A DNA stretch of 64,000 nucleotides from Myxococcota bacterium (lineage in GTDB: Bacteria; Myxococcota_A; SURF-8), in NCBI GenBank assembly GCA_965140415.1, contig OZ223209.1, forward strand, positions 2,944,001 to 3,008,000. The letters run 5' to 3'. The notes below the pieces were generated by a model. That model ran no database searches and was not told where the DNA came from. It saw only the letters and a program-made list of their open reading frames with translations. How positions within the stretch are numbered: position 1 is the stretch's first letter; each line of letters starts with the position of its first letter. Both the position numbers and the translations under genes were made by a program. This document shows, one piece after another, positions 5,726 through 57,656 of this stretch.

Positions 5726-5873
5726 TCGAAATTCAAGCTGATTTTCGTTGCCTGCAAAGTCCAGTGGGCTTTGACAGCATGAATTAGAGTAAATATTTTC
5801 TTGCAATTCAGCCATAGTTTGATATAAGCAGAATCCCGGTGCTTCGCACCATACAAACCTGGCCTTTAAGGTT

Positions 5874-43096: not shown

Positions 43097-46000
43097 CTAC
43101 TTCAGCTCATCTTCATTCTCATTAGAGGTCAAACCCTCAAGTTGTATTTCTCTTCCTTGAATGATTTCGCTTGTGCTGCGCATCTTGAACAAGCGTCTAA
43201 ATGCGTTTACCCAATCGTCTGCTATCGAATAAGTGCATGGAATGACAAATAAAGTCAAGAACGTAGCGAACGCCAGACCCCAGCAGATGCAGATCGCCAT
43301 CGGTTGCCAGGTTTTACTGGCCCCAGCAACACCAATCGCCATAGGTAGCAGACCTGCTATTGTGGTTAAAGTTGTCAATAATATCGGGCGCATACGTCTT
43401 GTACCGGAAATGATCAAGGCATCGTATCGCTTCATTCCTGTTGCTCGGGCACGGTTGATGAAATCAACCAACACAAGGGAATCATTCACAACGACCCCGG
43501 ATAGAGCGACGACCGAAATGGCGGCAACAATCGAAAACGTCAAATTCTGAACGATCAACCCAATTGCAACACCTATCAAAGAGAAGGGCACCGTATACAT
43601 TACGATCATTGGTTGAGTGAAAGACTGGAATTGCGTTCCCAAAATGAGATAGATGATGACAAGAGCCACAACAAAAGCTTGAAGCAATGACTTAAAGCTC
43701 TTTTGCTGTTCCTCGGCTTCTCCACCGAATTCAACCTTATATCCGGGATAACGCTCGCTGAATGTTTCATATTTCTTGCGCATGATGCGGTTGGCTTCAT
43801 CGGAATTGACATCGACCTGGTTGACATTGGCGGTCACAGTGATCGTTCGTTTGGCATTGCGACGACTGATGGAGGTCGGTCCTTTCTGAATGACGAATTC
43901 TCCAATTTCTGACAGTTGCACTGCAATACCTAACGGAGTATGAATCACCATCTTTTTCAGATCCTCAACGTCGTCGCGGTCGCTTTCTTTGTATTCGACC
44001 ATGACCTTGACTTCATCTCCTTCGGAATCTCTAAAGGAAGTCGCTTCCAATCCATCGATGGCCGTGCGCATGAATGTCGACAAGGCAACAACGGAGAGCC
44101 CATAGGAACTCATTTTGTCCCGGTCCGGCAAGAAACGGATTTCCTGTTTGCCACTGCTGTAACTCGATTCGATATCCGTAACGCCTTTGATCGCCTTCAA
44201 ATCATCGATTATTCGTTCTGAGTGTCGAATCAGATTGTCAAGGTCATCACCTGCGACTCGCATTTCAATGGGAGATCCGGTAGGCGGACCACTGGAATCC
44301 TTGGAAAAACGGGCACTTTCGATTTCCGGAATCGTTGTAAACCGTTTGCGGATGTCATTTTTGATCAGGTCGTTGTCACGGCGCTTGTCGCTGTCTCCCA
44401 TCTCAAATAGAAGCATTCCACCATTGGTGCGTTTGAGCCAGCGTTCACCGTCGATGATATAGCCGACGATGGCAATAACCGAGTTGATGTCATCTTTTGA
44501 AATGTCCGAACACCTCTGTTCGATCTGATTGATAATACGATCCGTTTCTTCCAATTGGGTGCCGGTCGGGAGTTGGACGATCAGCCATTCCGTAGACGAT
44601 TCTTCCTGTGGAAACATTTCGATACGCAGCACTTTCGCCGCGGCGACCGTAATTAGAATTGTGGCGATTAAAATGCCGATCGTTACCATGTAACGATGAC
44701 GAAGGAAGAACGCGATCTGTTTTTTGTAAGTGCTTTCCAGCCAGGCATAAAGGCGATCACCAAGTCTAGTTCCACTCGCTTTTGGAAGTTTACCGAAATC
44801 GGCAAGATGGGACGGGAGAACGACCAGGGATTGAATGAGCGAGCCGATAAGAGCCACCGTTACGACAATAGGAAGTACGGCCAGGAATTTGCCGACATCG
44901 CCCTCCATTAACAAAAGGGGGAGAAAGGCAGCGATAGTGGTTACAACTGCGGCAACAACTGGCCACATTACTTCTTCGGCGCCTTCGATGGCTGCCTTGA
45001 GAGCAGGCTTGCCCTGTTCCATGTGATGGTACACATTTTCAATGATGATGATGGCATCATCAACGACCATACCAAGCACCAGAATAAACGCAAAAAGGGA
45101 CAGGGAATTGATCGTTCCGCCGGTAACGTCCAGGAAAATAAAAGACGTTAAGAATGCAAAGGGAATTCCAATGATCGCCAGAATGGCGCTTCGGTATCCG
45201 ATCAGCAATGTCATTAAGATCGCGACCAGCAATAAACCTGTGATGGCATTGGAGGTTAGTACATTGATGCTTTCTCGCACCGGGATGGAATTGTCGTTTC
45301 GGATAGACAATTCCAGATCGGGAACCCGTTTTTGAAACTTCTCAACGAGATCCCGGATTTCATCTACGGCGGTAACGATCGACGCTTCTTTTTTCATGTA
45401 AGCGCGCAGGTAGACCGATGGTTTTCCGTTCAGGCGGGTAATGGATTCATCTTTTTCAAATGTGTCGTTGATGGTTGCAACGTCTTTTACTCGCAACGTG
45501 CCGCCTTCCATGCTAGCACGCAAAATAACATCTCCAATATCGTTTGCGTTTTCCAACTCGGAAATGGATCGGACCAGGAATTCCTGCCGTCCCATCGAAA
45601 GCCGACCGGCGGGGAGGTTGGCATTCCCCATTTGAATCGCTGCAACGATATCTTGCAGGGCGATACCGTGGGCTTCCAGCAGGGCGCGATCCGATTCGAC
45701 TCTGAATTCTCGTTTGCGCAGTCCGCTGATATCCATCTTGGCAATACTATCAAGATCCAGGATTTCGTCGCGTAACGATTTCGCAAGTTTGTTTAGGCCT
45801 TTTGTCGAATAATCGCCGCCCATCGCAATGCCGACAATCGGCCAGATCTCATTCGTACTGATTTTAATGTAAAAGATGTTGTCCTGTGCATCATCAGGCA
45901 GATCGGTCTTGATTTTATCGACTTCCGTTTTCAAATCCAGGAAGCTTTGGTCGAAGTTTTTCAGGCCGGCTTCATAACGAATAAACACCACGGAGCGGCC

Positions 46001-46258
46001 TTCTTCGGATCTGGAATTGATGAAGTCGATGTCCGATAGGTTTCGGACCTGCTCTTCAACCGGCAAGGTGATCAGCTTTTCAACATCATCCGGAGAAGCC
46101 CCCGGATATGCGATGATCACCAGCGCCATATCCAGATCGATAGAAGGATTGTTTTCCTGGGGCATCTGCATCAATACGAAAATGCCTGCCACCAGAATGG
46201 CAATCATCAACATATTTACGAGCACGGGCTGCCGTGCGAAAAAGCGTGGAATGGACAT
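43097..46258 (-). CDS. RND efflux permease (AcrB/AcrD/AcrF family)
   Basis: YPGASP..VE, GMVVDDAIIIIEN, RMRPILLTTLTT; 1053 aa. Confidence 0.93.
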   Translation of the reverse strand: MSIPRFFARQPVLVNMLMIAILVAGIFVLMQMPQENNPSIDLDMALVIIAYPGASPDDVEKLITLPVEEQVRNLSDIDFINSRSEEGRSVVFIRYEAGLKNFDQSFLDLKTEVDKIKTDLPDDAQDNIFYIKISTNEIWPIVGIAMGGDYSTKGLNKLAKSLRDEILDLDSIAKMDISGLRKREFRVESDRALLEAHGIALQDIVAAIQMGNANLPAGRLSMGRQEFLVRSISELENANDIGDVILRASMEGGTLRVKDVATINDTFEKDESITRLNGKPSVYLRAYMKKEASIVTAVDEIRDLVEKFQKRVPDLELSIRNDNSIPVRESINVLTSNAITGLLLVAILMTLLIGYRSAILAIIGIPFAFLTSFIFLDVTGGTINSLSLFAFILVLGMVVDDAIIIIENVYHHMEQGKPALKAAIEGAEEVMWPVVAAVVTTIAAFLPLLLMEGDVGKFLAVLPIVVTVALIGSLIQSLVVLPSHLADFGKLPKASGTRLGDRLYAWLESTYKKQIAFFLRHRYMVTIGILIATILITVAAAKVLRIEMFPQEESSTEWLIVQLPTGTQLEETDRIINQIEQRCSDISKDDINSVIAIVGYIIDGERWLKRTNGGMLLFEMGDSDKRRDNDLIKNDIRKRFTTIPEIESARFSKDSSGPPTGSPIEMRVAGDDLDNLIRHSERIIDDLKAIKGVTDIESSYSSGKQEIRFLPDRDKMSSYGLSVVALSTFMRTAIDGLEATSFRDSEGDEVKVMVEYKESDRDDVEDLKKMVIHTPLGIAVQLSEIGEFVIQKGPTSISRRNAKRTITVTANVNQVDVNSDEANRIMRKKYETFSERYPGYKVEFGGEAEEQQKSFKSLLQAFVVALVIIYLILGTQFQSFTQPMIVMYTVPFSLIGVAIGLIVQNLTFSIVAAISVVALSGVVVNDSLVLVDFINRARATGMKRYDALIISGTRRMRPILLTTLTTIAGLLPMAIGVAGASKTWQPMAICICWGLAFATFLTLFVIPCTYSIADDWVNAFRRLFKMRSTSEIIQGREIQLEGLTSNENEDELK

Positions 46259-46261
46259 GAG

Positions 46262-47389
46262 TTACTCCACTACCTGAACGCTGGATTGATCGGAAAGGTT
46301 GTGCTGGCCGCTAATCACCAGTGAGTCGCCATCTTTCACGCCTTCTTTAAGCAGGACGCGCTTACCGATTTTCGGACCAAGTTTGACTTCTCGTTCATGC
46401 GCTGTTCCATCTTCAACCACGAAGACATAGTAGCGATCGAAGCGCTCTATCAGCAACTCGATGGGGAAGAACACACCTTCAATCGGCTCCCCAATGGGAA
46501 TTGATACGCGCACGGCCATGCCGATCCTCAAATCTTCAACGGAATTGTCAATCGTCAGTTCGACCGGGTAACTCATGGTTGGTTTTAATGCTTTTACTCC
46601 GATGCTAGTGACGGTTGCCGTTATCGGTTCGCCTTGCTGCGATTGAATGTTAAGGCTGGCTTTGCGTCCAGTGCGAAGCAGGCCGATGACATCTTCTCCA
46701 ACCCCGACCTGGACTTTCAACTTACTGCGATCCACGATCTGCGCGACAGGAGTTGCTGGTGCCACAGTGTCGCCAAATTTAACCAGTTTCGAGGCGATTT
46801 CTCCAGCAAATGGTGCTCGAATGGATGACTTTCGCAGGGCGCGTTCGGCCTGCTGCAAGCCCGCCTGTGTGGCCGTATTGGCCGCTTGTGCTTGTGCCAG
46901 GGCCAACTTGGCCTGGTCGAACTGACTTTCGCTCACATCCTTGGAATTGAACAACTGCTCAATACGGTTGAATTCCAATTCGGCCTGTTTCAATGCCGCA
47001 CTGGATTGTGCATGCTGGGCTTTGGCCTGCTTGACTTGAATCTGGTAGGGTTCCGGATCAACGGAGAGCAGGACATCACCTTTTTTTACTTTCTGCCCCA
47101 GATCGAATTTTAAGGAAACGATCTGTCCGCTGGTTTCCGAAATCAGGATGACGTCTCGGTCTGAAGTAATAACACCGCTGGCTTCGACAACCTGATAAAG
47201 GGATTCCGTTTTCTCCGTAGCAATACGCACGGGTTCCACCTTACCGGTTGCACCTTCGTTTTCCTGGTCGGAATCTCCGCTATTGGAAGAGGGCTTGGAG
47301 GAACAGGTGCAAAGCAAGAATAGCAACATGAATACGAACAAGGTCGTTTTCATTTTCCAGCCGATCATAATGACTTCCTTTCTCGGCAC
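46262..47389 (-). CDS. RND membrane fusion protein (periplasmic adaptor); start may be the second Met
   Basis: Lipoyl halves (SGQI..GQKVKKGD; IRAPFAG), coiled-coil hairpin, EGVKDGD. Confidence 0.92.
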   Translation of the reverse strand: MPRKEVIMIGWKMKTTLFVFMLLFLLCTCSSKPSSNSGDSDQENEGATGKVEPVRIATEKTESLYQVVEASGVITSDRDVILISETSGQIVSLKFDLGQKVKKGDVLLSVDPEPYQIQVKQAKAQHAQSSAALKQAELEFNRIEQLFNSKDVSESQFDQAKLALAQAQAANTATQAGLQQAERALRKSSIRAPFAGEIASKLVKFGDTVAPATPVAQIVDRSKLKVQVGVGEDVIGLLRTGRKASLNIQSQQGEPITATVTSIGVKALKPTMSYPVELTIDNSVEDLRIGMAVRVSIPIGEPIEGVFFPIELLIERFDRYYVFVVEDGTAHEREVKLGPKIGKRVLLKEGVKDGDSLVISGQHNLSDQSSVQVVE

Positions 47390-47435
47390 AATATCAAAAC
47401 ATGTGTTTTCCAGTATTCAATAAAAACGGAACAAG

Positions 47436-48499
47436 TCAAGAAAAGGGAAACTGCTTGATATATACATCCTGCTTAGAATACGGGATTTCGATGTCGGCCT
47501 TGTTCAGTTCCGTGTAAATCTTCGTCAATAATATGTCAATCACACGGCCTTTGAATACGGGTTGCTCGATCCAAACTCGTAGCTGAAAATCCAGCGCCGA
47601 ATCGCCAAAGGAAACGAATCGTACGGAAGGTTCCGGCTCTGGGCTGATATGCTCAATGTCCTGTGCGCAAACAAGAAGAATGCGCTTAACTTTGTCGGGG
47701 TCGCTGCCGTAAGCCACTGGAACCGGGATGCGCAGGCGCATCTTTTCAAAACGTCCGCCGGTTTCGTTTATAATCTTGCTATTGCCAATGACAGCATTGG
47801 AATCGTCACTTCGATATCGTCGCGGGTTAAGATGCGTGTCGAACGTAGACCGATCTGTGTAACTTTTCCCCGTTCGTTTCCTTTTTCCAAAATGATAAAA
47901 TCCCCGATCTTGTAGGGGCGGTCGGTGACGATGAACAATCCTGCGAAGAGGTTCGCCAGCGTATCTTTGGCAGCGAAACCAACGGCGATACCAACGATGC
48001 CGGCAGAAGCCAGCCAGCCAGTAACATCGATGTTCCAGGCAACAAGGGCGAAATAGGCGATGCCGCCAACGACAATGGTTTTTACCAGGATCTGAAATAA
48101 GGGCAGGGTGCTCGGTTGTATGAAGGTCGCCCGGTCGGAGACATTGCTCAGGATGGACAGCAACAGTTGGGCCAGCCTCATGATGGCAATGCCCCATATC
48201 AACACGGCCAGCGTTTTCAGAACGCCCATCGCAACGAACAATTCATGTTGTCCCGGATCGAGATCCAATAAGGCGTATCCCAGCCCGGAGAACAACACGG
48301 AAAGAAAGACCGGTCCGCCAAGAATCTGGAAAATCCGGTCGTCCAGATCGGTAGCGGTTTTACGCGTTAAAAGCTTTAATAGACCGTTAATGAAATACTT
48401 GAGAAACAGCGCCAGTACAAACGTAGCGAAAAGAATCGTGAGAAAACGCACTCCGGGGTGCGTTCCATAGGTTTCGATTAGCTGGTTGAGTTGCTCCAT
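47436..48499 (-). pseudogene. MscS mechanosensitive channel split by a 1-nt frameshift near 47799 (pseudogene or sequence error)
   Basis: N-part (GFAAKDTLANLFAG, PYKIGD, IGLRST..VTIP) is in one frame; C-part (NAVIGNSKIIN, FGDSALDF, IEIPY) is in another. Confidence 0.85.
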
Positions 48500-48553
48500 T
48501 CCAACAGCTTCCTTTCAACAATATCATGATGCACGCAGTGTCGCGATCAAGCT

Positions 48554-49573
48554 TTACTTCATGGCTCCCGGTCCTTCATCCGGGAATTCCCCCGTTTGGT
48601 TATAGGCTCGTACCGCCGGTTCGAGCAGGTTGGGGAAATCGCTCTGCAATAGGAATACACCCGCCTCGATGAAATTCTTCCATCCGCTGTAATCGCCACC
48701 GATTACCAGAATATCTCCGGCGGCCATGACATCCTGCTGAACCTTCAGACCAGCCTGATTCAACTGCTGCACGAGTTCCGGCACAGGGCCGGGGGCGCTA
48801 ATTTCCACAATGCGAATACCCGGCAAAAGCTGACGGATTCCCTCTAATTCTTCAATTGAGGAAAGTGGGGCCATGACTTCGATCTGCTCGTCGTTGGCCA
48901 GCACCTCTGCCAGGCTGCTGGCACCATCGCGTACGAGAGCTACTTCGTAATACGGTCCAGCCGTAATCGCGGCGGCGACCAGATCCGAGCGGTCGGTCTT
49001 TTGATCGACGTACAACATGATGCCCACTTGTTTTGCAAGTGCAAGCGCATCTGCGAAAGTGGGGATCTTGCAGCTTTCGTCGCTACCCTCTTCGCAGTTT
49101 AGTAATGACAGGTCCTGTAACTGCGCCCAGCTCAGTTCATCCACGTACCCTGTGCCCGTTGTGGTGCGGTCCACGTCTCCATCATGCATCAGCACCAGTA
49201 TGTCGTCCTGCGTATGGCGCACGTCGATTTCGGCGAAATCGACACCGATTTCCGCTGCGGCTCGAATTGCAGCCAGCGAGTTTTCCGGCTGATGCACGTG
49301 ATAGCCTCTATGGGCGGTGACGAGCACCTGGTCGCATTCCGGGTCGATCATGCAGGCGTAAGGGGCCACCTTGTTCCATTCGTTTTCGCTCTCCTGTTCC
49401 AAGACCAGTTCGGAATCGAGATCGCCATCTATATCCGTATCTGAGGCGAGTTCTGTGTCGCCATCGGAAGAATCACTGTTCTCGTCACCGGAATCGCAAC
49501 CCGCGCAAAGCAGGAATGGGGTGATGCAGAAAAGCAAAATTGAGGATATGAAACGCAGGCTACAAAATGTCAT
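48554..49573 (-). CDS. Glycerophosphodiester phosphodiesterase family lipoprotein
   Basis: Lipobox-like CAGC; AHRG, PENSL, EIDVR, MHD, SDFP. Confidence 0.9.
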   Translation of the reverse strand: MTFCSLRFISSILLFCITPFLLCAGCDSGDENSDSSDGDTELASDTDIDGDLDSELVLEQESENEWNKVAPYACMIDPECDQVLVTAHRGYHVHQPENSLAAIRAAAEIGVDFAEIDVRHTQDDILVLMHDGDVDRTTTGTGYVDELSWAQLQDLSLLNCEEGSDESCKIPTFADALALAKQVGIMLYVDQKTDRSDLVAAAITAGPYYEVALVRDGASSLAEVLANDEQIEVMAPLSSIEELEGIRQLLPGIRIVEISAPGPVPELVQQLNQAGLKVQQDVMAAGDILVIGGDYSGWKNFIEAGVFLLQSDFPNLLEPAVRAYNQTGEFPDEGPGAMK

Positions 49574-49999
49574 CTATCCATCTCCTGAAATGAAAGCCCC
49601 GTTCAGCATGGCTGAATGTAGGCGCCCATTATGCGACAGACCCTTTCGATTGACAAGAAAGATGTTGAGATCTTTGGAACAATTCTAAATTTTACAGAGG
49701 TTGTGATGCCAAGATGTTCGGAGGGTAGGTGGGTGAAAATGTTTGGTTTTATAAAGCCGGATATCGAATTGTTATGTCGCGAAGCATGGTCGCTCACTGC
49801 GTGACGGATTTTCCCGTAACATTTCGCCCTTTTCGCTAGAAAGTAGTTGCTTTCTGTTGCTGCTTGAGTACACTCTTCACGTTTCGCGGATTGCAGGTGA
49901 ATTCCTGCCGCGAATACAACGAAACGGCTGAAATGATGGCCATTTTCTCTTTCTTGTCGCGCGGTGTCCGCCGGGCGGCTGTTACCAAAGCGGATTGCG

Positions 50000-51949
50000 A
50001 TGACTGCACCTCTCGACTTCACATTCAAGCCATTCGAAGAAATGACCCCTGCCGATTATGAGGCCGTAGGGTTAATGAGCGGGCTGGAAATTCACCAGCA
50101 ACTCAAAACAAAACGAAAACTCTTCTGCCGTTGCCCTGCCGGGCGCTACTCGGAGCATATTGACGCGGAGATTCTGCGACACATGCGCCCTACGCTTTCC
50201 GAGTTAGGCGAGTACGACGGCACAGCGCTGATGGAATTTAAAACCAAAAAGGAGATTATTTATCTCCTAAACAACGAAACCGTCTGCACCTACGAAATGG
50301 ACGATGCGCCTCCGTTTGAAATCGACCCGGAGGCAGTGGATATTGCCATCGAAGTGGCTCTGCTTTTGAAGCTGAATACGGTCAGTGAATTGCATATCGC
50401 CAGAAAACAATATCTGGACGGTTCCATCCCGACCGGTTTTCAGCGAACGACGATTCTGGGAATCGACGGTGAAATCCCATACAAAGATCGGAAAATCGGC
50501 ATTATCCAACTCGGATTGGAAGAAGATAGCTGCCGAGAGGTTAGCGATCTGGGTCATACAATCACCTTCCGTACGGATCGCTTGGGTATGCCCTTGATCG
50601 AAACGGTCACCTATCCCGATATGAAAACGCCTCAGGAAGTAGCGGAAGTGGGCGAACTGCTGCGCCGATTGGTGCGCGCCACCGGTAAAGTGCGGCAAGG
50701 TGCAGGCGCTGCCAGACAGGATGTCAACGTCTCGATCAAAGGCGGAACCCGAATTGAAATCAAGGGGGTGCCTTCCCTGCGTCGCATTCCGCGACTGATC
50801 TACAACGAGGCCATGCGACAGCATAACCTGCTGAAAATACGAGATGAATTGCTGCGTCGCGGCATTACTGAAGAAAACCTGGATCATCGTTCGGCGGATA
50901 TTTCCGGTATCGTGCGCCGCACCAGCTATCTTCCCATTCAAAATGCGATTGAACGTGGGTTGGCAGTTGTGGCTGTAAAGCTAAAAGGATTTGGCGGAAT
51001 TCTGGCGCATCCCACCCAAGAACATACCTTCTTCGGGCAGGAGTTTTCGGATCGCGTCAAGGTTATTGCCTGTATGATGGAACATCCGAACATGCTGCAT
51101 TCCGACATGATGGACCCCGGCATCTCCCGAGGACAGTGGAATCGGATTCGCAAGAGATTGCAGGCAACTCCTGAAGACGCCATCGTGTGTGTATGGGGGT
51201 CCGAAGAGGATGTTGACACGGCAGTCAAAGAGATTGTCATCCGTGCACAGGATGCCACAAAGGGTGTTCCTTCCGAAACCCGCCAGGCTTTTCGCGATGG
51301 CACCAACGGTTTCGAGAGGATTCTTCCCGGAGCCGACCGTATGTATCCCGACACGGACGAACCTCCAATCGCGATCGACGATCGCAAGATTGCAATGATT
51401 CAAAGCGCGTTGCCGGAGTTGCCCTGGGATCGCGAAGATCGGTATATAAAGCAAGGGGTTGCAGAAAATGCCGCCCGCATGTTGGCTTATGGCGAGCTTT
51501 GTGTGTTGTTCGATGCCGTGCAGGGGCGTACCGGTTGCGACAACAAGCTTTTATCTTACACGATCCTTCATGTTGTGCGTCACTTCCTGAAAAAAGGAGC
51601 CTATCAGGGAAGACGACTGGAAGATGCTCTTTCCGAGTTGTTCCTGGCGATAAAGGAAAATCGCGTTCGAAGCGAAGCAATTCGCAGAATACTGACCGAC
51701 TATGCGACAAACGAAACGGAAAGTATGCAGGAATTGCTGGAACGCTACAGCATTACAGGATCGGAAGAAGAAGAGTTGACGCAATGGCTGCAAACCGCCA
51801 AGGAAGTTCAGGAGCAACTTTGGTCTGATGACAAGCAAGCCAGGCAGCGATATTCGATGGGACTGATCATGCATCGCATGCGAGGAAGAATCGATCCGAA
51901 TGTGGTTCAACAACGTCTGGAAACTGTGGTAGGTGCCGATCATGATTAG
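50000..51949 (+). CDS. gatE: Glu-tRNA(Gln) amidotransferase subunit E (archaeal type)
   Basis: GLEIHQQL..KLFCRCP, RPTLSELGE, GFQRT, LEED, DRLGMPLIE, QDVNVSI..RIEIKGV, insertion domain, VPSETR, LPGADRMYPDTD, C-terminal MG.IM..MRGRID; ATG 50000 preferred over GTG 49964. Confidence 0.93.
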   Translation: MTAPLDFTFKPFEEMTPADYEAVGLMSGLEIHQQLKTKRKLFCRCPAGRYSEHIDAEILRHMRPTLSELGEYDGTALMEFKTKKEIIYLLNNETVCTYEMDDAPPFEIDPEAVDIAIEVALLLKLNTVSELHIARKQYLDGSIPTGFQRTTILGIDGEIPYKDRKIGIIQLGLEEDSCREVSDLGHTITFRTDRLGMPLIETVTYPDMKTPQEVAEVGELLRRLVRATGKVRQGAGAARQDVNVSIKGGTRIEIKGVPSLRRIPRLIYNEAMRQHNLLKIRDELLRRGITEENLDHRSADISGIVRRTSYLPIQNAIERGLAVVAVKLKGFGGILAHPTQEHTFFGQEFSDRVKVIACMMEHPNMLHSDMMDPGISRGQWNRIRKRLQATPEDAIVCVWGSEEDVDTAVKEIVIRAQDATKGVPSETRQAFRDGTNGFERILPGADRMYPDTDEPPIAIDDRKIAMIQSALPELPWDREDRYIKQGVAENAARMLAYGELCVLFDAVQGRTGCDNKLLSYTILHVVRHFLKKGAYQGRRLEDALSELFLAIKENRVRSEAIRRILTDYATNETESMQELLERYSITGSEEEELTQWLQTAKEVQEQLWSDDKQARQRYSMGLIMHRMRGRIDPNVVQQRLETVVGADHD

Positions 51950-53330
51950 TGAAGATGCATATAAAGGCTACCGTAACGCCGGAAAAGACAAACTGGTCGA
52001 GCAGGGCGTGGAAGTTTGGAGCGATGTGGAAGCCCAGACCGAACGCGGAATGTTCCGAGGAATCATTCTGCCGCGCTCGGAAACGGCGGACGATAAGCAC
52101 ATCGTGTTGAAATTGCAGACCGGCTACAACGTTGGGCTTCGTGCGGATAAAATTCTGTCAATGAAGCAGGTCGGTTATCGCGCTGCGAACTACAAAATCC
52201 CGGAAAAAGCGTTCCCGTTCGATCCCAAAAAACCGAAGGTCAAGCTTTTCGGTACTGGCGGCACCATCGCATCACGCTTGGATTATCGCACCGGTGCCGT
52301 GATTCCTGCTTTTTCTCCTGGCGAATTATACGGTTCCGTTCCGGAACTGGCCGATATCTGCAATCTGGAAACGGAAAAGCTGTTCGGTGTGTTCAGCGAA
52401 AACATGGGACCGGAGCAGTATATCGAAACCGCAAAAAACTGTGGCAAGGCAATCGAAGACGGCTACAGCGGCATCGTGATCGGTCATGGTACGGATACCA
52501 TGCATCACACCGCCGCCGTGTTAAGCTTCATGATTCAGGATTCACCGATTCCAATCGTGATGGTCGGCAGTCAGCGCAGTTCGGATCGTCCCAGTTCCGA
52601 TGCCGCCCGCAACCTGATTCACTCTGTTTATACTGCGGCACATTCGGACATCGCGGAAGTGATGGTCTGCATGTTCGGTCCCACGTCCGATCGCTACAAC
52701 CTGTTGCATCGCGGAACACGCGTTCGCAAGATGCACAGCAGTTACCGTTCGACTTTCCGCACGCTTTCCGATATTCCGTTGGCTCGCATTCAGGATCGCA
52801 AGATCGAGCACTTTACGGAAGATTATCGCAGGCGGCGCGATGACCGCACGGCAAAAATCACGCCGGTGTTCGATGACCGGGTGGCGATTGTCTACTACTA
52901 TCCGAACATGAAGCCGGATATCATCGAATCGCTAATCGATAACGGCTACAAGGGCATCGTAATTGCGGGAACGGGCTTGGGGCATGTCAACAAACCCTTG
53001 TACAGCGTACTTGAGAAAGCCTGCAAGAAAGACATCCACGTTTACATGACGGTGCAGACTCTCTATGGTTTCGTTCAAATGTACGTGTACGAGACCGGAC
53101 GTGAATTGATGCAGCTTGGAGTGGTTCCGGCTTCGAACATGCTGCCGGAAGTCGCTTATGTAAAACTGGGATGGGTGCTGGGGCAGACTCACGACCGCGC
53201 CGAGGTTCAGGAGATGATGCTGACTCCGATTTCGCGAGACATTACGGAACGTGAGCCGTACAACGGGTACACGATTTTACAGGGTGGCATTCCCGAAGTT
53301 GAAGCCGCTCTGCAAAAACTGTGGAAATAG
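51942..53330 (+). CDS. gatD: Glu-tRNA(Gln) amidotransferase subunit D (glutaminase)
   Basis: GatD-specific N-domain (GIILPR, HIVLKLQTGYNVG) plus asparaginase fold TGGTIASRLDYRTG, HGTDT, GSQRSSDRPSSD, RKMHSS; 8-nt overlap with gatE. Confidence 0.93.
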   Translation: MISEDAYKGYRNAGKDKLVEQGVEVWSDVEAQTERGMFRGIILPRSETADDKHIVLKLQTGYNVGLRADKILSMKQVGYRAANYKIPEKAFPFDPKKPKVKLFGTGGTIASRLDYRTGAVIPAFSPGELYGSVPELADICNLETEKLFGVFSENMGPEQYIETAKNCGKAIEDGYSGIVIGHGTDTMHHTAAVLSFMIQDSPIPIVMVGSQRSSDRPSSDAARNLIHSVYTAAHSDIAEVMVCMFGPTSDRYNLLHRGTRVRKMHSSYRSTFRTLSDIPLARIQDRKIEHFTEDYRRRRDDRTAKITPVFDDRVAIVYYYPNMKPDIIESLIDNGYKGIVIAGTGLGHVNKPLYSVLEKACKKDIHVYMTVQTLYGFVQMYVYETGRELMQLGVVPASNMLPEVAYVKLGWVLGQTHDRAEVQEMMLTPISRDITEREPYNGYTILQGGIPEVEAALQKLWK

Positions 53331-53359
53331 GCTCTTGCCTCTCGCAATGCTATATACAT

Positions 53360-53395
53360 AAAAAACGCTGACAGGAAATGAACTGTCGGCGTTTT
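53360..53395. terminator. Bidirectional terminator between gatD and the convergent HAD gene
   Basis: aaaacgctgacag-gaaatgaa-ctgtcggcgtttt. Confidence 0.75.
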
Positions 53396-53468
53396 GCGTT
53401 CTTTGGGGGCATGAAATATCTTGAGGCATCCTGGTGCTTCAGAAAACAGCAGTTGCACTCTGCAATTC

Positions 53469-53942
53469 CTATCGTCGTAGCGTGGCGATCAAACGCAATG
53501 GGTCCAGTAAACAATCCAAAGCGCATTCGATGGATTGAACCACCATGTCTCCTGCTATCAGAGCGCTTGTCGCGGCTCCTTCTTTTGCTCCAAGTACAAC
53601 GATACCCAATGAGGCTTCACGAAGCACCAACTCGTCATTCGCACCGTTGCCGAAGACGACGGTCCGCTCCGGCCCCAGTTTTCTTAAAATTTCGAGCTTG
53701 GCTTCTCGGGCAGGTCGATCAGCCGGGATGATGGTCAACGGCAGTCCTAGCTCTTCAGAAATCCGCTTTCCAGCACCGCGTGTGTCGCTTGTAACCAAGT
53801 GAAGCGATAATTTCTCGGAGAGCTGACGTACCTTGTCTTTTGTCACCTCGGTCAATTGGCCAAGATCGGCCAGCGTGCCGTTTAAATCGAAAAAGGCATG
53901 TGTTAGTTCAAGGGTTTTAAAGCCGGGGATGTCGATTTTCAT
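53469..53942 (-). CDS. HAD-superfamily hydrolase (soluble P-type-ATPase-like, COG4087 type)
   Basis: MKIDIPG start with GAGGT RBS; DLNGTL, TSDTRG, K, GNGAND, RLIATLR. Confidence 0.85.
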   Translation of the reverse strand: MKIDIPGFKTLELTHAFFDLNGTLADLGQLTEVTKDKVRQLSEKLSLHLVTSDTRGAGKRISEELGLPLTIIPADRPAREAKLEILRKLGPERTVVFGNGANDELVLREASLGIVVLGAKEGAATSALIAGDMVVQSIECALDCLLDPLRLIATLRR

Positions 53943-54152
53943 ATACGACCTCGCTTTATCATGCTTTACACTCGTACTGATCGTTTCAGCAGCGAATGAA
54001 TGATTGAGGAAGAGTTCACTATGAATGTACAAGGAATCGATAAAAGAATCAATTGGAATAGGAAACACATCTGTCTGTATCCAAATCTGGGTTGCTAGCA
54101 ATATGTAGTATTGATGGACAAAGAGCAGACGAAAAAAGCTTTCCGACAACCT

Positions 54153-54216
54153 TTATCCACAGTACAATTAAACCGAATTTAAAGTGCATCTGGGGGATAA
54201 GCGGTTGTTTTCCACT
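54153..54216. promoter_or_regulatory. DnaA-box cluster
   Basis: Perfect TTATCCACA at 54153-54161; two-mismatch boxes at 54192-54200 (inverted) and 54208-54216. Confidence 0.45.
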
Positions 54217-54234
54217 ACTGATTAAGGACTTTTC

Positions 54235-56241
54235 ATGGATATCGAACTGTCAACATCGTTCTGTCATGTAAAGGAATTTCGAATCCTCATCAATGAAAAC
54301 AGGAAACAACTTCTGTCAGAAGATAGCCGTAGTTGGCTGAAAAGCCGGTATACGTCGTTGCAATCTATTTTGAAGGTGGAAAAAGAAGTATTGCTGACGT
54401 GGAAAGCCGTTCCGTTCTCTACGCCTCTTTCGTTTCCTGAATCACATAAGGAGCAATCTTTTTTCGGGACGTTATATTCGCGGATTCTGCTTTTGTGGAT
54501 TTCGTTGCAGTTGCTGTTTCTAACCAAAAGAGAAAAACAATATGAGGAAATCCGGTCGTTTTATTACTTTCTATTTACAATTCAACGATCGAAGAGTCTG
54601 TATCTGAAGGTCGTAGAGGAAGACCTGGCTGAATTGGCAGCAAAAGCGAAATCGTCAAAAGCAGATTTGCAACTGTTGAGTTTTCAGAAAACGAGCGTTT
54701 CTCCAGCAAAGCTCTCGGTAATCGTGGACTGGCTCGAACCACGTGCCTATAGCATACCGCTCTTTCGAGGACTATTTTTCCTGCAACCACGGGAAAAGAT
54801 CCGAGCAAAGAAGATTATCACTACGATCCAGGAAAAAATTGGGAACTTTTATAACGAACAGCATAAGGGGTTGCAGAATTTCCTGCAAACCAGTGCAGCT
54901 AATACGCAAAACTACCTTGGCACATTGCAAGCCTATGACTCGGAAGAAGATAAGCAGGATGAAAGCACTACGGCTGCCGCCAAAGCTCGTTCGGAAAGGC
55001 TGGTAGACTCTTTTGAACGCAATTTTTTGGTGAAATTGCAAGAAGTCCAGAAGGTTGTGGAATTTCGAATTGTTGAAACAATCGACACTGTCGTGTCGTT
55101 GCGTAACCGAACATGGATTAACGTTAAGCGCAAATTGTTGATTTCTGAAATGGATCGCGCCAGAAACTGGCGCAAGCAAATGAATGAGCGTGCTGACCGG
55201 TATTTTCAGGAAAAAGAAGAAAAGATCGGACTTTGGGTGAACGAGACTTTGAAGCCTGCAATGGGACTCACCCAGCGGGTGAGAATTCAATCGTCCGCTT
55301 CCAAATTGGATGAGCGCTGGCTTTCTCCACCGGATGCGCCTTCCGATTTAATCGATGTCATGCTGGACAGTCAAAATCCTTCTCTGATGATCGTACCTGA
55401 ACCGGTCGTTAGAATCCTTTCCGATCTGAGAGCGTATTACAAATCCAACCACTGCGGCAATCTGCTATATGTGACCGATCATCAGACCGGCTCGTTCGGA
55501 GTGCTCGGTTATCTGGTTCGTAAGGAATTCAAAGACGCCACATTCCGGGTTTATCGCCATCGAAAAACGATGCCCATTGCCCGTGTGGCGGATTTTTCGG
55601 AAGATGTCCTGTTGTTCGATGATTTCGAACGGTTGGTATACTTGAATGAGCGCCACATTCACCAGGCTCAAGCGCTGGTGCAACAGCTACTCAATTCAAA
55701 CAAATTAACGATCATTTCGGTACACCATGCCGTGGCGAAGCAGCTTCGTCTTGCCGTTCCCGGGTTCAATCGCTTCCTTTTCCAGATCGATTTCAGCAAG
55801 TATGAATTTGAAGCGTTCAAAAATATCATTTCAAGGCGTATGCTGGTAACTGGCTACCAATTTGAATACGATGATGAGAATGAGTTCTGGTCCAGACTGT
55901 ATCAAGCGAGTTCCGGCTTGCCTGGCGTAGGACTGCGTCTCTTTTTAAAATGCGTCAAGCAAGTGAACCGACAGACGATCACACTGCACTACGATCTGCC
56001 TGGAATGAAGGATTTGCTTTCCAGACTTTCGCTGGACGAGAAACTTCTACTGCGACGCATCTACATGCATCCTCAAGTTTCGGAAACCTTACTAGAGGAA
56101 GATGATTTTCCGAACTTCCGAACCTTGCTGGCTTCCATGAAGAACATGGGTATTCTTTTGGAAAATCAGAAACTCTATGAGATCAGGCCGGAAATTTTGG
56201 GGCAACTTCGGGATCACTTGGTCCAGTCGAATCTGCTATAA
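54235..56241 (+). CDS. Hypothetical protein; C-terminal half resembles a degenerate AAA+/winged-helix module
   Basis: 668-aa ORF; LLFDDFE Walker-B-like, SSGLPGVGL lid-like GxP, no intact Walker A; 9 nt before mscS. Confidence 0.6.
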   Translation: MDIELSTSFCHVKEFRILINENRKQLLSEDSRSWLKSRYTSLQSILKVEKEVLLTWKAVPFSTPLSFPESHKEQSFFGTLYSRILLLWISLQLLFLTKREKQYEEIRSFYYFLFTIQRSKSLYLKVVEEDLAELAAKAKSSKADLQLLSFQKTSVSPAKLSVIVDWLEPRAYSIPLFRGLFFLQPREKIRAKKIITTIQEKIGNFYNEQHKGLQNFLQTSAANTQNYLGTLQAYDSEEDKQDESTTAAAKARSERLVDSFERNFLVKLQEVQKVVEFRIVETIDTVVSLRNRTWINVKRKLLISEMDRARNWRKQMNERADRYFQEKEEKIGLWVNETLKPAMGLTQRVRIQSSASKLDERWLSPPDAPSDLIDVMLDSQNPSLMIVPEPVVRILSDLRAYYKSNHCGNLLYVTDHQTGSFGVLGYLVRKEFKDATFRVYRHRKTMPIARVADFSEDVLLFDDFERLVYLNERHIHQAQALVQQLLNSNKLTIISVHHAVAKQLRLAVPGFNRFLFQIDFSKYEFEAFKNIISRRMLVTGYQFEYDDENEFWSRLYQASSGLPGVGLRLFLKCVKQVNRQTITLHYDLPGMKDLLSRLSLDEKLLLRRIYMHPQVSETLLEEDDFPNFRTLLASMKNMGILLENQKLYEIRPEILGQLRDHLVQSNLL

Positions 56242-56250
56242 AGGGCAACG

Positions 56251-57081
56251 ATGGAACACGTTCAAAATCTGATGTCGCGTTTTGAATTGACCTGGCTGCA
56301 AGTCGGATTCTCTTTAGTTATTTTGTTTGCGGCCTATTTCCTGAATCAAATATTACTGAAGTTCAGCCTGTACCTGTACCAACAGCAGGTATTGTGGCTG
56401 CGAAAACTTCGGTTCTGGGTGCCGCTTGTTCGCATCATCATCTGGTTTTCGAGTATCTTTTTCGCAATCAGAGTGCTTCATCCACCAACCGAATTGCTCT
56501 TTGCACTGGCGACTTCTGCCGGTGTTGCTGTCGGTTTGGCTGCCCAGGAACTTGTAAAATATATATTTGGAACGGTCATTATCTGGGCCGATCGGGTCTA
56601 TCAAGAAGGTGATCGCGTTACAATAGGAGATGTGGAGGGAATCGTTCAGACTATCGGGTTACGGTCAACAAAAGTCTGGGCTTTCGATGACACCATCATC
56701 GTCATTCCAAACTCCAAGTTGCTTGATGTCGTCGTCTATAACGCCAACTCCGGTGCGCCCTCCGAACAGATCCTGATAGATTTGTATGTTCCTTTGGATG
56801 CCGATACGGACAAGGCTGCTAAGCTTGCACGTTTGGCCGCCATCAGTTGCGATCTTGTGGAGCCGCTTAAACCTGTTGGTGTGTTGGTGAATGACTATTT
56901 TGAAAAGGACACTCCGTTTTCTCGAATTCGGTTAAAGGTATACGTCCGAAATATCATCAACGAGAAACGGCTTGTCAGTGATGTTACCACGAAGGCCAAG
57001 CGTTTGTTCCGTGAAAACGGCATTTACAGCAACACCTCAGAACCGCAACAGAATCAAGAACATACTGCCACTGCTCAATAG
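56251..57081 (+). CDS. MscS family mechanosensitive channel
   Basis: GVAVGLAAQE, YQEGDRV, IGLRST, IPNS. Confidence 0.9.
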   Translation: MEHVQNLMSRFELTWLQVGFSLVILFAAYFLNQILLKFSLYLYQQQVLWLRKLRFWVPLVRIIIWFSSIFFAIRVLHPPTELLFALATSAGVAVGLAAQELVKYIFGTVIIWADRVYQEGDRVTIGDVEGIVQTIGLRSTKVWAFDDTIIVIPNSKLLDVVVYNANSGAPSEQILIDLYVPLDADTDKAAKLARLAAISCDLVEPLKPVGVLVNDYFEKDTPFSRIRLKVYVRNIINEKRLVSDVTTKAKRLFRENGIYSNTSEPQQNQEHTATAQ

Positions 57082-57101
57082 ATCTACCAGTTGAATTGAA
57101 C

Positions 57102-57130
57102 AAAAAATGCCTTCGAATTGCGAAGGCATT
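57102..57130. terminator. Terminator hairpin between convergent genes
   Basis: aatgccttcg-aattg-cgaaggcatt with U-tract on the minus strand. Confidence 0.75.
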
Positions 57131-57188
57131 AACAATTAAGTAGGAATTTCGTACTTTTACAAATTCAAGCAAGGCTCTTGAATCGGCA

Positions 57189-57656
57189 TTACCCTAGCTT
57201 GCGGCGCAGCCAGTCCATTTTTTCTTGTCGACCGTCTTTCATGTAACCCAACACCATTTTCTCCAGTTTCTTCCCCATCAAAGGGATCGAAATGTCGATG
57301 TTGATTTTATCGATAAAGGTGCAGGTGGCATCTCCCGTCGACACGATTTCCGTCGTTCCACTGACTTTGGATTTCGCGGCCATGCCATCCGCATCACGAG
57401 TCCATGTACATAAGCGGCGATCTAGATCCCAGTTGAAAGTCATATGAGCTTTGATGGTTCCGATGCCGGGGATCGGCTCGTCCAGATCGACTTTCATGAC
57501 GGCTTTGCTGTCGGATTTCTCGGCCAATGTGGCTTTCGGGGAAATTCCTTTCTGAACGACGGTCCATTCTTCGACCAGCTTTTCGTTTAGCATGCCCTCC
57601 ATAACGGTGCTTGCAGGAATGTTTAATTCATCTTTGAATTCAATAGTTTGTGCCAT
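57189..57656 (-). CDS. DUF2505-like (START/SRPBCC fold) protein
   Basis: GGAGGA RBS before ATG 57656; C-terminal ISIPLMGKKLEK motif. Confidence 0.7.
   Translation of the reverse strand: MAQTIEFKDELNIPASTVMEGMLNEKLVEEWTVVQKGISPKATLAEKSDSKAVMKVDLDEPIPGIGTIKAHMTFNWDLDRRLCTWTRDADGMAAKSKVSGTTEIVSTGDATCTFIDKINIDISIPLMGKKLEKMVLGYMKDGRQEKMDWLRRKLG

Follow-up and report, generated by a model that had tools for sequence, protein, structure and literature searches.

A 64,000-nucleotide stretch of contig OZ223209.1 from an uncultured Myxococcota bacterium (the whole stretch is called the window here, and its own genome G000) carries gatE and gatD side by side, and we favour, with moderate confidence, the reading that the two encode a working two-subunit Glu-tRNA(Gln) amidotransferase of GatDE type that acts in parallel to the glutaminyl-tRNA synthetase (GlnRS) of the same genome. 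GatD, which resembles asparaginases, would free ammonia from glutamine or asparagine, and GatE would phosphorylate the side-chain carboxyl of the glutamate carried by tRNA-Gln and add the ammonia, yielding Gln-tRNA(Gln). The substrate would be a bacterial-type tRNA-Gln with the first pair U1:A72, presumably mischarged by the sole glutamyl-tRNA synthetase (GluRS), which is of bacterial type. Since the genome also encodes GlnRS, GatDE would not be the only route to Gln-tRNA(Gln), and would provide a second one, parallel or corrective. The genes are intact, belong to the GatE and GatD families, keep the catalytic motifs of these families, descend vertically and lie in a bacterial genome context; from this we infer the enzymatic activity, the substrate and the mischarging by GluRS.

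Family membership and descent

The GatE product consists of a cradle (kinase/transamidase) domain, a GatE-specific insertion and a YqeY-like tail, and in the GatD product a GatD N-terminal domain precedes a glutaminase of asparaginase type, followed by some 20 further residues as a C-terminal extension. Searches with hidden Markov models placed GatE above the cut-offs of NF003107 (567.6 bits, cut-off 456) and TIGR00134 (478.9 bits, cut-off 319.55), whereas six GatB models gave it 70.8-176 bits, all far under their cut-offs of 314.8-680. GatD passed TIGR02153 (504 bits, cut-off 324) and NF003217 (500.9 bits, cut-off 310). Pfam recognises GatB_N and GatB_Yqey (PF02637, E = 8.3e-10) in GatE, and GatD_N (PF18195), Asparaginase (PF00710) and Asparaginase_C (PF17763) in GatD.

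The same two subunits, with the same domain order, make up the archaeal GatDE of Pyrococcus abyssi (1ZQ1) and that of Methanothermobacter thermautotrophicus solved with tRNA-Gln (2D6F), and both window proteins align with these chains over their full length: GatE with 383.7 bits to 1ZQ1_C and 335.5 to 2D6F_C, GatD with 394 bits to 1ZQ1_A (residues 23-433 of 438) and 386.4 bits to 2D6F_A (residues 14-428 of 435). The GatE insertion is present, query residues ~283-446 being continuous with 1ZQ1_C and 2D6F_C, while GatB chains cover residues ~100-290 and 447-502 only, and the GatD N-terminal domain is likewise aligned. The basic GatE loop TGKVRQGAGAARQD aligns without gaps with TKKVKRGLGTIRQD of 1ZQ1_C; a short basic loop of this kind (GKVRQG here, KVKRG in archaea) stands where bacterial GatB has a 3-10 turn, and its form GK/RVR(T/Q)G is kept across the bacterial GatE set. 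The catalytic motifs of both window proteins align with the same motifs in the archaeal chains. TGGTIAS, GHGTDTM and RVRKMHSS are nearly invariant in 66 bacterial GatD sequences, and we take TGGTIAS, GHGTDTM and RVRKMH to be the catalytic Thr, Thr-Asp and Lys motifs; in 80 bacterial GatE sequences the same holds for GLEIHQQL, DRLGMPLIE, RQDVNVS, RIEIKGV, ETR and RMYPDTDEPP. Judged by these models and structure alignments, the window pair is a genuine and intact set of GatE and GatD orthologues and not GatB beside an ordinary asparaginase. An earlier note on this DNA had read it in this way, as overlapping, undamaged genes with the GatE insertion region and the GatD N-terminal domain in place, and that reading holds in every part.

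Comparison with bacterial GatCAB (Staphylococcus aureus 3IP4/2DF4) marks the other border of the family. GatB and GatE have in common the cradle fold and the YqeY-like tail, bacterial U1:A72 tRNAs would be substrates of both enzymes, and either enzyme can be the sole amidotransferase of a genome in this phylum. GatDE differs in taking its ammonia from the asparaginase homologue GatD and not from the amidase GatA, in having no GatC, and in the extra insertion domain of GatE. Bacterial GatE has, as such, neither the Lys-rich motif KXGKXK nor the 3-10 turn described for bacterial GatB (PMC2811023).

Relatives of the window GatE are widespread among bacteria, being encoded by at least 585 stretches of a species-level collection of bacterial genomes. 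The best 80 of these are all titled bacterial, at 51-67% identity, under the names Myxococcota, Aminicenantes, Ignavibacteria, Chlorobi-type, Calditrichota, Latescibacterota, KSB1, Marinimicrobia and further groups, with labels from submitters that are in part plainly unreliable; to archaeal-type representatives the identity is ~30-38%. Titles of carrier records also give Caldithrix, Melioribacter and Ignavibacteriaceae bins. Searched exhaustively and without a profile, a set of 1.84 billion representatives returned 661 proteins at E ≤ 1e-30. The closest GatE loci fall in the window's own family and order. Within the phylum we sampled 41 genomes (G000, five others of its family, four others of its order and 31 from the rest of the phylum), and GatE scored above cut-off in 14 of them: G000, 5/5 of the family, 4/4 of the order and 4/31 of the rest.

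A FastTree phylogeny of 80 bacterial GatE sequences places the window in a Myxococcota clade (support 100), and organism labels cluster on this tree, with 19 changes where shuffling gave a mean of 34 and no match in 200 shuffles. A larger tree of 154 rows also includes unlabelled representatives of full length and a single haloarchaeal copy, with four GatB sequences from bacteria as its outgroup. Here the 37 labelled bacterial rows all group together in a clade of 70 rows (support 100), and the haloarchaeon belongs to a separate clade of 73 rows. Members of the latter carry the cluster names Parvarchaeota, Thermoprotei and Thermoplasmata, and deep-branching rows those of Heimdallarchaeota, Thorarchaeota and Odinarchaeota; these archaeal-type names come from cluster look-ups of 30 rows and were obtained for some only, most rows being nameless. 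A quick IQ-TREE search under LG+C20+F+G4, on 56 of the 154 rows that span the clades with the longest branches excluded, recovered bacterial GatE as monophyletic (support 100), with a Heimdallarchaeota-named row as its sister (support 98). In an approximately unbiased (AU) test archaeal monophyly was not rejected, the constrained tree being 24.3 log-likelihood units better than the free search (p-AU 0.827), and an outgroup-free tree separated the bacteria plus the Heimdall-named row from all other archaea, with a Shimodaira-Hasegawa-like approximate likelihood ratio test (SH-aLRT) value of 97. The bacterial GatE clade thus has a single origin, and Asgard-type GatE is its nearest archaeal neighbour, in GatE trees only and through one Heimdall-named cluster. 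The data fit inheritance dating from before the domains diverged as well as an ancient transfer, and we claim no donor. The only gatE of the plasmid collection is haloarchaeal (Natrinema thermotolerans CP031304.1, a 987-kb replicon, L155 2917-4868); it is split across two frames, through a frameshift in this copy or an error of sequencing, and has no annotated protein. GatD found no match in that collection.

These results bear on the earlier claim that this lineage had acquired an archaeal module. A recent import from archaea, or a chimera of the assembly, would agree with the fact that the family was described from archaea, to which the papers restrict it (PMC2811023, PMC9499178), and still we regard it as highly improbable. 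GatDE is present in each of the 9 further genomes of the order, and the window copy is nested in the Myxococcota clade. The G+C content of the operon matches its surroundings, with no anomaly or island, and no mobile-element genes adjoining the operon were seen among the family matches of the flanking genes. The assembly is a single closed contig of 5,975,757 bases; a 74.7-kb contig assembled from run X1 covers 46000-57500 without joints, this run being perhaps the window's source sample and so not fully independent, and 30/30 bins across the region are covered in another sample from that study. The join that was to be checked against reads is therefore not chimeric, and the absence of mobile-element marks is borne out, whereas the claim of acquisition by this lineage falls, GatE being present in the whole family and order, in at least 585 bacterial stretches and in a bacterial clade. 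The GatDE operon is native, long resident and mostly vertically inherited; because its carriers span family and order and the copy is nested in a bacterial clade, a transfer between domains, if there was one, is old and predates this lineage.

Vertical retention also speaks to whether the pair might be a decaying relic without function. The seeming redundancy with GlnRS and asparaginyl-tRNA synthetase (AsnRS) could be taken that way, but the frames are intact, the motifs nearly invariant, and the pair is kept in 6/6 genomes of the family. Between phyla GatD keeps ~70% identity, against ~53% for GatE, and within the family the value for GatD rises to 83-85%. We consider decay no less improbable than recent import.

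Within this conserved family the bacterial clade has features of its own. Bacterial GatD ends in an extension of ~20 residues (query ~441-462) that reaches past the ends of both archaeal chains and is conserved in 66 bacterial sequences, its NGY, QG and PEV positions being nearly invariant. In the YqeY-like tail of bacterial GatE the core MG..M...RG is kept in 69/80 sequences, with a variable basic stretch directly before it in place of the archaeal GXXAXGX. What sets the clade apart from the characterised archaeal enzyme is the identity pair of the tRNA on which it would act, the motif in the tail, the GatD extension and the genes that accompany it in the genome.

Glutaminyl-tRNA supply and the role of the pair

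In the genome that carries the window, the one GluRS is of bacterial type (576.6 bits on gltX_bact), as is the aspartyl-tRNA synthetase (AspRS, 767.4 bits), and ARAGORN finds 47 tRNA genes, among which tRNA-Asn has U1:A72 and the two tRNA-Glu genes have G1:C72. AsnA was not found in the genome. As for GatCAB, GatA gave no match in the genome and the GatB models only sub-cut-off pieces of gatE, no search being made for GatC. The suggestion that tRNA-Gln or GluRS had become archaeal-like is thereby refuted, U1:A72 standing in both tRNA-Gln genes and GluRS being bacterial; the presence of GlnRS and AsnRS and the lack of GatCAB add weight to the other suggestion made earlier, a changed specificity or role of the enzyme.

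Several findings weigh against a working Glu-tRNA(Gln) amidotransferase. A complete GlnRS is encoded (761 bits, cut-off 425.8), and so are AsnRS (483.5 bits) and three AsnB-family genes above cut-off (453, 395 and 385 bits), so that nothing in the genome requires an amidotransferase and the direct pathways suffice on paper. Both tRNA-Gln (CUG and UUG) have U1:A72, whereas archaeal GatDE is reported to read A1:U72 (PMC9499178). One GluRS together with GlnRS and without gatCAB has been called a robust sign of a discriminating GluRS (PMC3927822), and if GluRS discriminates here, no Glu-tRNA(Gln) would be made. The GXXAXGX motif, described in the YqeY-like tail of archaeal GatE (PMC2811023), is absent, the window having KQARQRY where 1ZQ1_C has GMGAMGL. 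The G..A pattern occurs in 0/69 of the bacterial GatE sequences with a recognisable tail core (of 80) and in 34/73 other GatE rows of the tree, among which are 28 unlabelled rows of the wider bacterial-type clade; the helical and tail region is moreover the least conserved part of GatE across bacteria. The classification of GluRS, as laid out in that paper, never considers GatDE (PMC3927822). According to the same source the Arg358 determinant of GluRS discrimination does not transfer between phyla (PMC3927822), and we dropped a prediction from Arg358 for this reason.

Two further features of the translation apparatus were noted on the way. A 460-residue class-II gene (C1:1713205-1714587) matches only the generic Pfam family of D, K and N synthetases and resembles the core of lysyl-tRNA synthetase (LysRS); with an N-terminal region of its own, this paralogue may be an EpmA/PoxA-type enzyme, and as a LysRS/EpmA-like gene it was rejected as a second, archaeal-type AspRS. 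GlnRS of the window genome (G000 C1:2610176-2612326) has a C-terminal Trbp111-like tRNA_bind domain (PF01588, residues 620-714), and in several GatE-negative relatives (G020, G030, G035, G014, G025 and G018 among them) the GlnRS frame extends instead through a YqeY-like region similar to the tail of GatE, which recalls the Deinococcus GlnRS-YqeY fusion (PMC1865053).

The pattern across carriers shows how commonly GatDE stands beside direct synthetases. Above cut-off, the 14 GatE-positive genomes of the phylum sample have GlnRS in 11, GatA in 9 and AsnRS in 14, GlnRS not being found in G003, G005 and G007 (86, 79 and 95% complete); the whole sample has GlnRS in 33/41 and AsnRS in 37/41. Fetched loci led us to 50 further carriers (two being the same genomes as G006 and G008), and these have, again above cut-off, GlnRS in 44, AsnRS in 47, GatA in 15, AsnB-family genes in 37 and AsnA in 9. 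GlnRS and AsnRS without a GatA match, the arrangement of the window genome, is the commonest in the clade (27/50). Only 3/41 phylum-sample genomes (G012, G015 and G021) have neither GatE nor a GatA-like gene, GatDE is the sole amidotransferase in G000, G004, G008, G023 and G028, and in the window's family GatDE is present in 6/6 genomes and GatA in 4/6. Because so few genomes lack both and the family keeps GatDE more completely than GatA, selection appears to maintain an amidotransferase function of some kind, for which GatDE by itself can be enough.

That function might be another one. The specificity of GatDE could have broadened or shifted, so that it also or instead amidates Asp-tRNA(Asn), the asparagine job that GatCAB performs in bacteria such as Thermus and Deinococcus. 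This would suit the lack of GXXAXGX throughout the bacterial clade, the U1:A72 pair that tRNA-Asn shares with tRNA-Gln in the window genome, and the want of GatCAB in this and most other carrier genomes (GatA passes its cut-off in 15/50). Moreover, 8/50 carriers (G050, G053, G058, G062, G064, G070, G082 and G090), mostly of one Aminicenantes subclade (loci L044, L049, L055, L060, L064, L076, L098 and L108), pair GatDE with AsnRS and have no match to AsnA, the AsnB family or GatA, so that GatDE may have a role in asparagine supply in those lineages. The genes missing from these eight genomes may, however, be merely unassembled, and AsnB-family genes occur in 37/50 carriers and AsnA in 9/50. The window genome has three AsnB-family genes and AsnRS, for which reason we rejected a hidden asparagine dependence of it, and no second, archaeal-type AspRS was found there. 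Characterised GatDE, as reported in PMC2811023, does not use Asp-tRNA(Asn). We judge this shift unlikely.

A role of the pair outside translation, on another aminoacyl carrier, on a small molecule or in regulation, appears to us slightly less likely still. It would accommodate the seeming redundancy with GlnRS (44/50 carriers) and AsnRS (47/50), the variable tRNA-binding tail and the conserved, bacterial-specific extension of GatD. Against it, the YqeY-like tail is recognised (PF02637) and its MG..M...RG core is kept in 69/80, and conservation extends over the entire cradle, kinase and transamidase motifs included. Nor does a partner gene recur beside the pair, the commonest flank family being found in 8/81 loci. 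In these 81 clustered loci (the window counted) gatD lies directly 3' of gatE in 68; in a few carriers (loci L026, L029 and L033 of genomes G009 and G006/G041, and L043) gatD was not within the fetched flank, and there the two genes are unlinked or further apart. A linked tRNA gene was not found as a pattern either, any tRNA occurring in only 3/80 loci. At one locus, L095 of an unclassified bin, ARAGORN reports a 77-nucleotide tRNA-Glu(CTC) with an odd anticodon position (5756-5832), ~170 nucleotides upstream of gatE.

If GatDE does make Gln-tRNA(Gln) beside GlnRS, the two tRNA-Gln genes suggest how the work might be divided. As classified by eye from the acceptor-stem sequences, tRNA-Gln(CUG) of the window genome has C2:G71 and A73, and tRNA-Gln(UUG) (C1:3422766-3422840) has G2:C71, G3:C70 and G73. 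G2:C71, G3:C70 and G73 are identity elements of E. coli GlnRS. The tRNA-Gln(CUG) gene lies 18 nucleotides upstream of tRNA-Glu(CUC) (C1:2557453-2557619), in a tandem conserved across the phylum. The split in acceptor type between isoacceptors is found in G000, G001, G002, G004 and G008, where both isoacceptors were recovered. tRNA-Gln(CUG) was recovered in 25 genomes, 19 of them with C2:G71, and 19/19 of these have an amidotransferase, GatA in three being full length and just under cut-off; the two recovered genomes without an amidotransferase have G2:C71 in tRNA-Gln(CUG). The genomes compared are related to one another, and those without an amidotransferase number two only. Together, this weakly suggests that tRNA-Gln(CUG) is served via GluRS and GatDE. 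In its fullest form, glutamine decoding would be split: GlnRS would charge tRNA-Gln(UUG), GluRS would charge tRNA-Gln(CUG) with glutamate for GatDE to convert, the bacterial enzyme would have been re-tuned to U1:A72 via its remodelled tail, and its lineage would go back to the divergence of bacteria and archaea or derive from an Asgard-like archaeon. We offer this scheme as a tentative one that is rather doubtful as a whole; in G006 and G009, tRNA-Gln(UUG) likewise has C2:G71, which counts against it.

The operon and its flanks

The features of the locus are collected in the table, in positions of the 64,000-nucleotide stretch. Both reading frames are intact. For gatE an in-frame GTG at 49964 would give a product 12 residues longer (661 residues, open reading frame 49964..51949, + strand); the ATG is the likely start, as the matches to profile models and PDB chains begin at about residue 19-30 of the ATG form. 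The overlap between gatE and gatD suggests translational coupling of the two genes, and it grows to 17 nucleotides if the alternative GTG of gatD is used.

Table. Features of the gatE-gatD locus in the window (contig OZ223209.1)
Feature	Position	Strand	Description
glycerophosphodiesterase-like gene	48554..49573	-	divergent from gatE
intergenic region	49574..49999	+	426 nucleotides between the glycerophosphodiesterase-like gene and gatE
141-residue open reading frame	49603..50028	-	no NCBIfam or Pfam match
gatE	50000..51949	+	649 residues from ATG at 50000; stop TAG 51947-51949
gatE stop/gatD start overlap	51942..51949	+	8 nucleotides, ATGATTAG, read from sequence
gatD	51942..53330	+	462 residues from ATG at 51942 (open reading frame 51933..53330; alternative GTG 51933)
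hairpin	53362..53395	both	13-bp stem, T-rich tails on both strands, 32 nucleotides past the gatD stop; consensus scan
HAD-like gene	53469..54149	-	convergent to gatD

The promoter of the operon presumably lies in the intergenic region upstream of gatE, where a consensus scan gave no promoter-like site on the + strand. The 141-residue open reading frame on the opposite strand is probably not a gene. Judged by its match to the consensus, which does not by itself prove function, the hairpin downstream of gatD probably terminates transcription in both directions, serving the convergent HAD-like gene as well. Neither a tRNA gene nor a passenger gene adjoins the pair in the window.

Around the operon the genes are bacterial and, as had been noted before, of a Gram-negative type: an RND efflux pump, MscS-like channels, the glycerophosphodiesterase-like gene and SecA. 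Just downstream, a 668-residue open reading frame (54235-56241, + strand) is without NCBIfam or Pfam match. Two overlapping MscS-like open reading frames on the - strand (47436..48197 and 47768..48499, together 47436-48499) look like one frameshifted gene; contigs from X1 and X2 both have an extra G after 47798, and the window probably contains a 1-base assembly error at that position.

Bearing on the archaea-only view of GatDE

The earlier note had called GatDE classically archaea-specific, and this is indeed how the enzyme is presented, as exclusive to archaea, in a 2010 paper (PMC2811023) and a 2022 review (PMC9499178). Whether bacterial copies had been described before is answered in part: NCBI records name bacterial members GatE, for example in candidate division CSSED10-310, whereas our literature search, including the names of the carrier phyla, found no paper discussing bacterial GatDE. 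Arguments have been built on the archaea-only view, namely that GatDE was present in LUCA (the last universal common ancestor) and lost from bacteria, and that it co-evolved with archaeal tRNA-Gln, so that GlnRS was kept out of archaea (PMC9499178, PMC2811023); according to the review no archaeon has GlnRS (PMC9499178), whereas it is present here, in a bacterial host whose tRNA-Gln has U1:A72 instead of A1:U72.

A large, monophyletic and mostly vertically inherited clade of bacterial GatDE bears directly on these arguments. It sits with U1:A72 tRNAs, and roughly nine carriers in ten have GlnRS as well. The rule by which GlnRS present and gatCAB absent mark a discriminating GluRS (PMC3927822) is likewise undercut. 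The window is an ordinary member of this clade, annotated in databases, and the interest lies in the clade and not in this genome alone. Its puzzle is that of a highly conserved amidotransferase kept where direct synthetases seem to make it needless.

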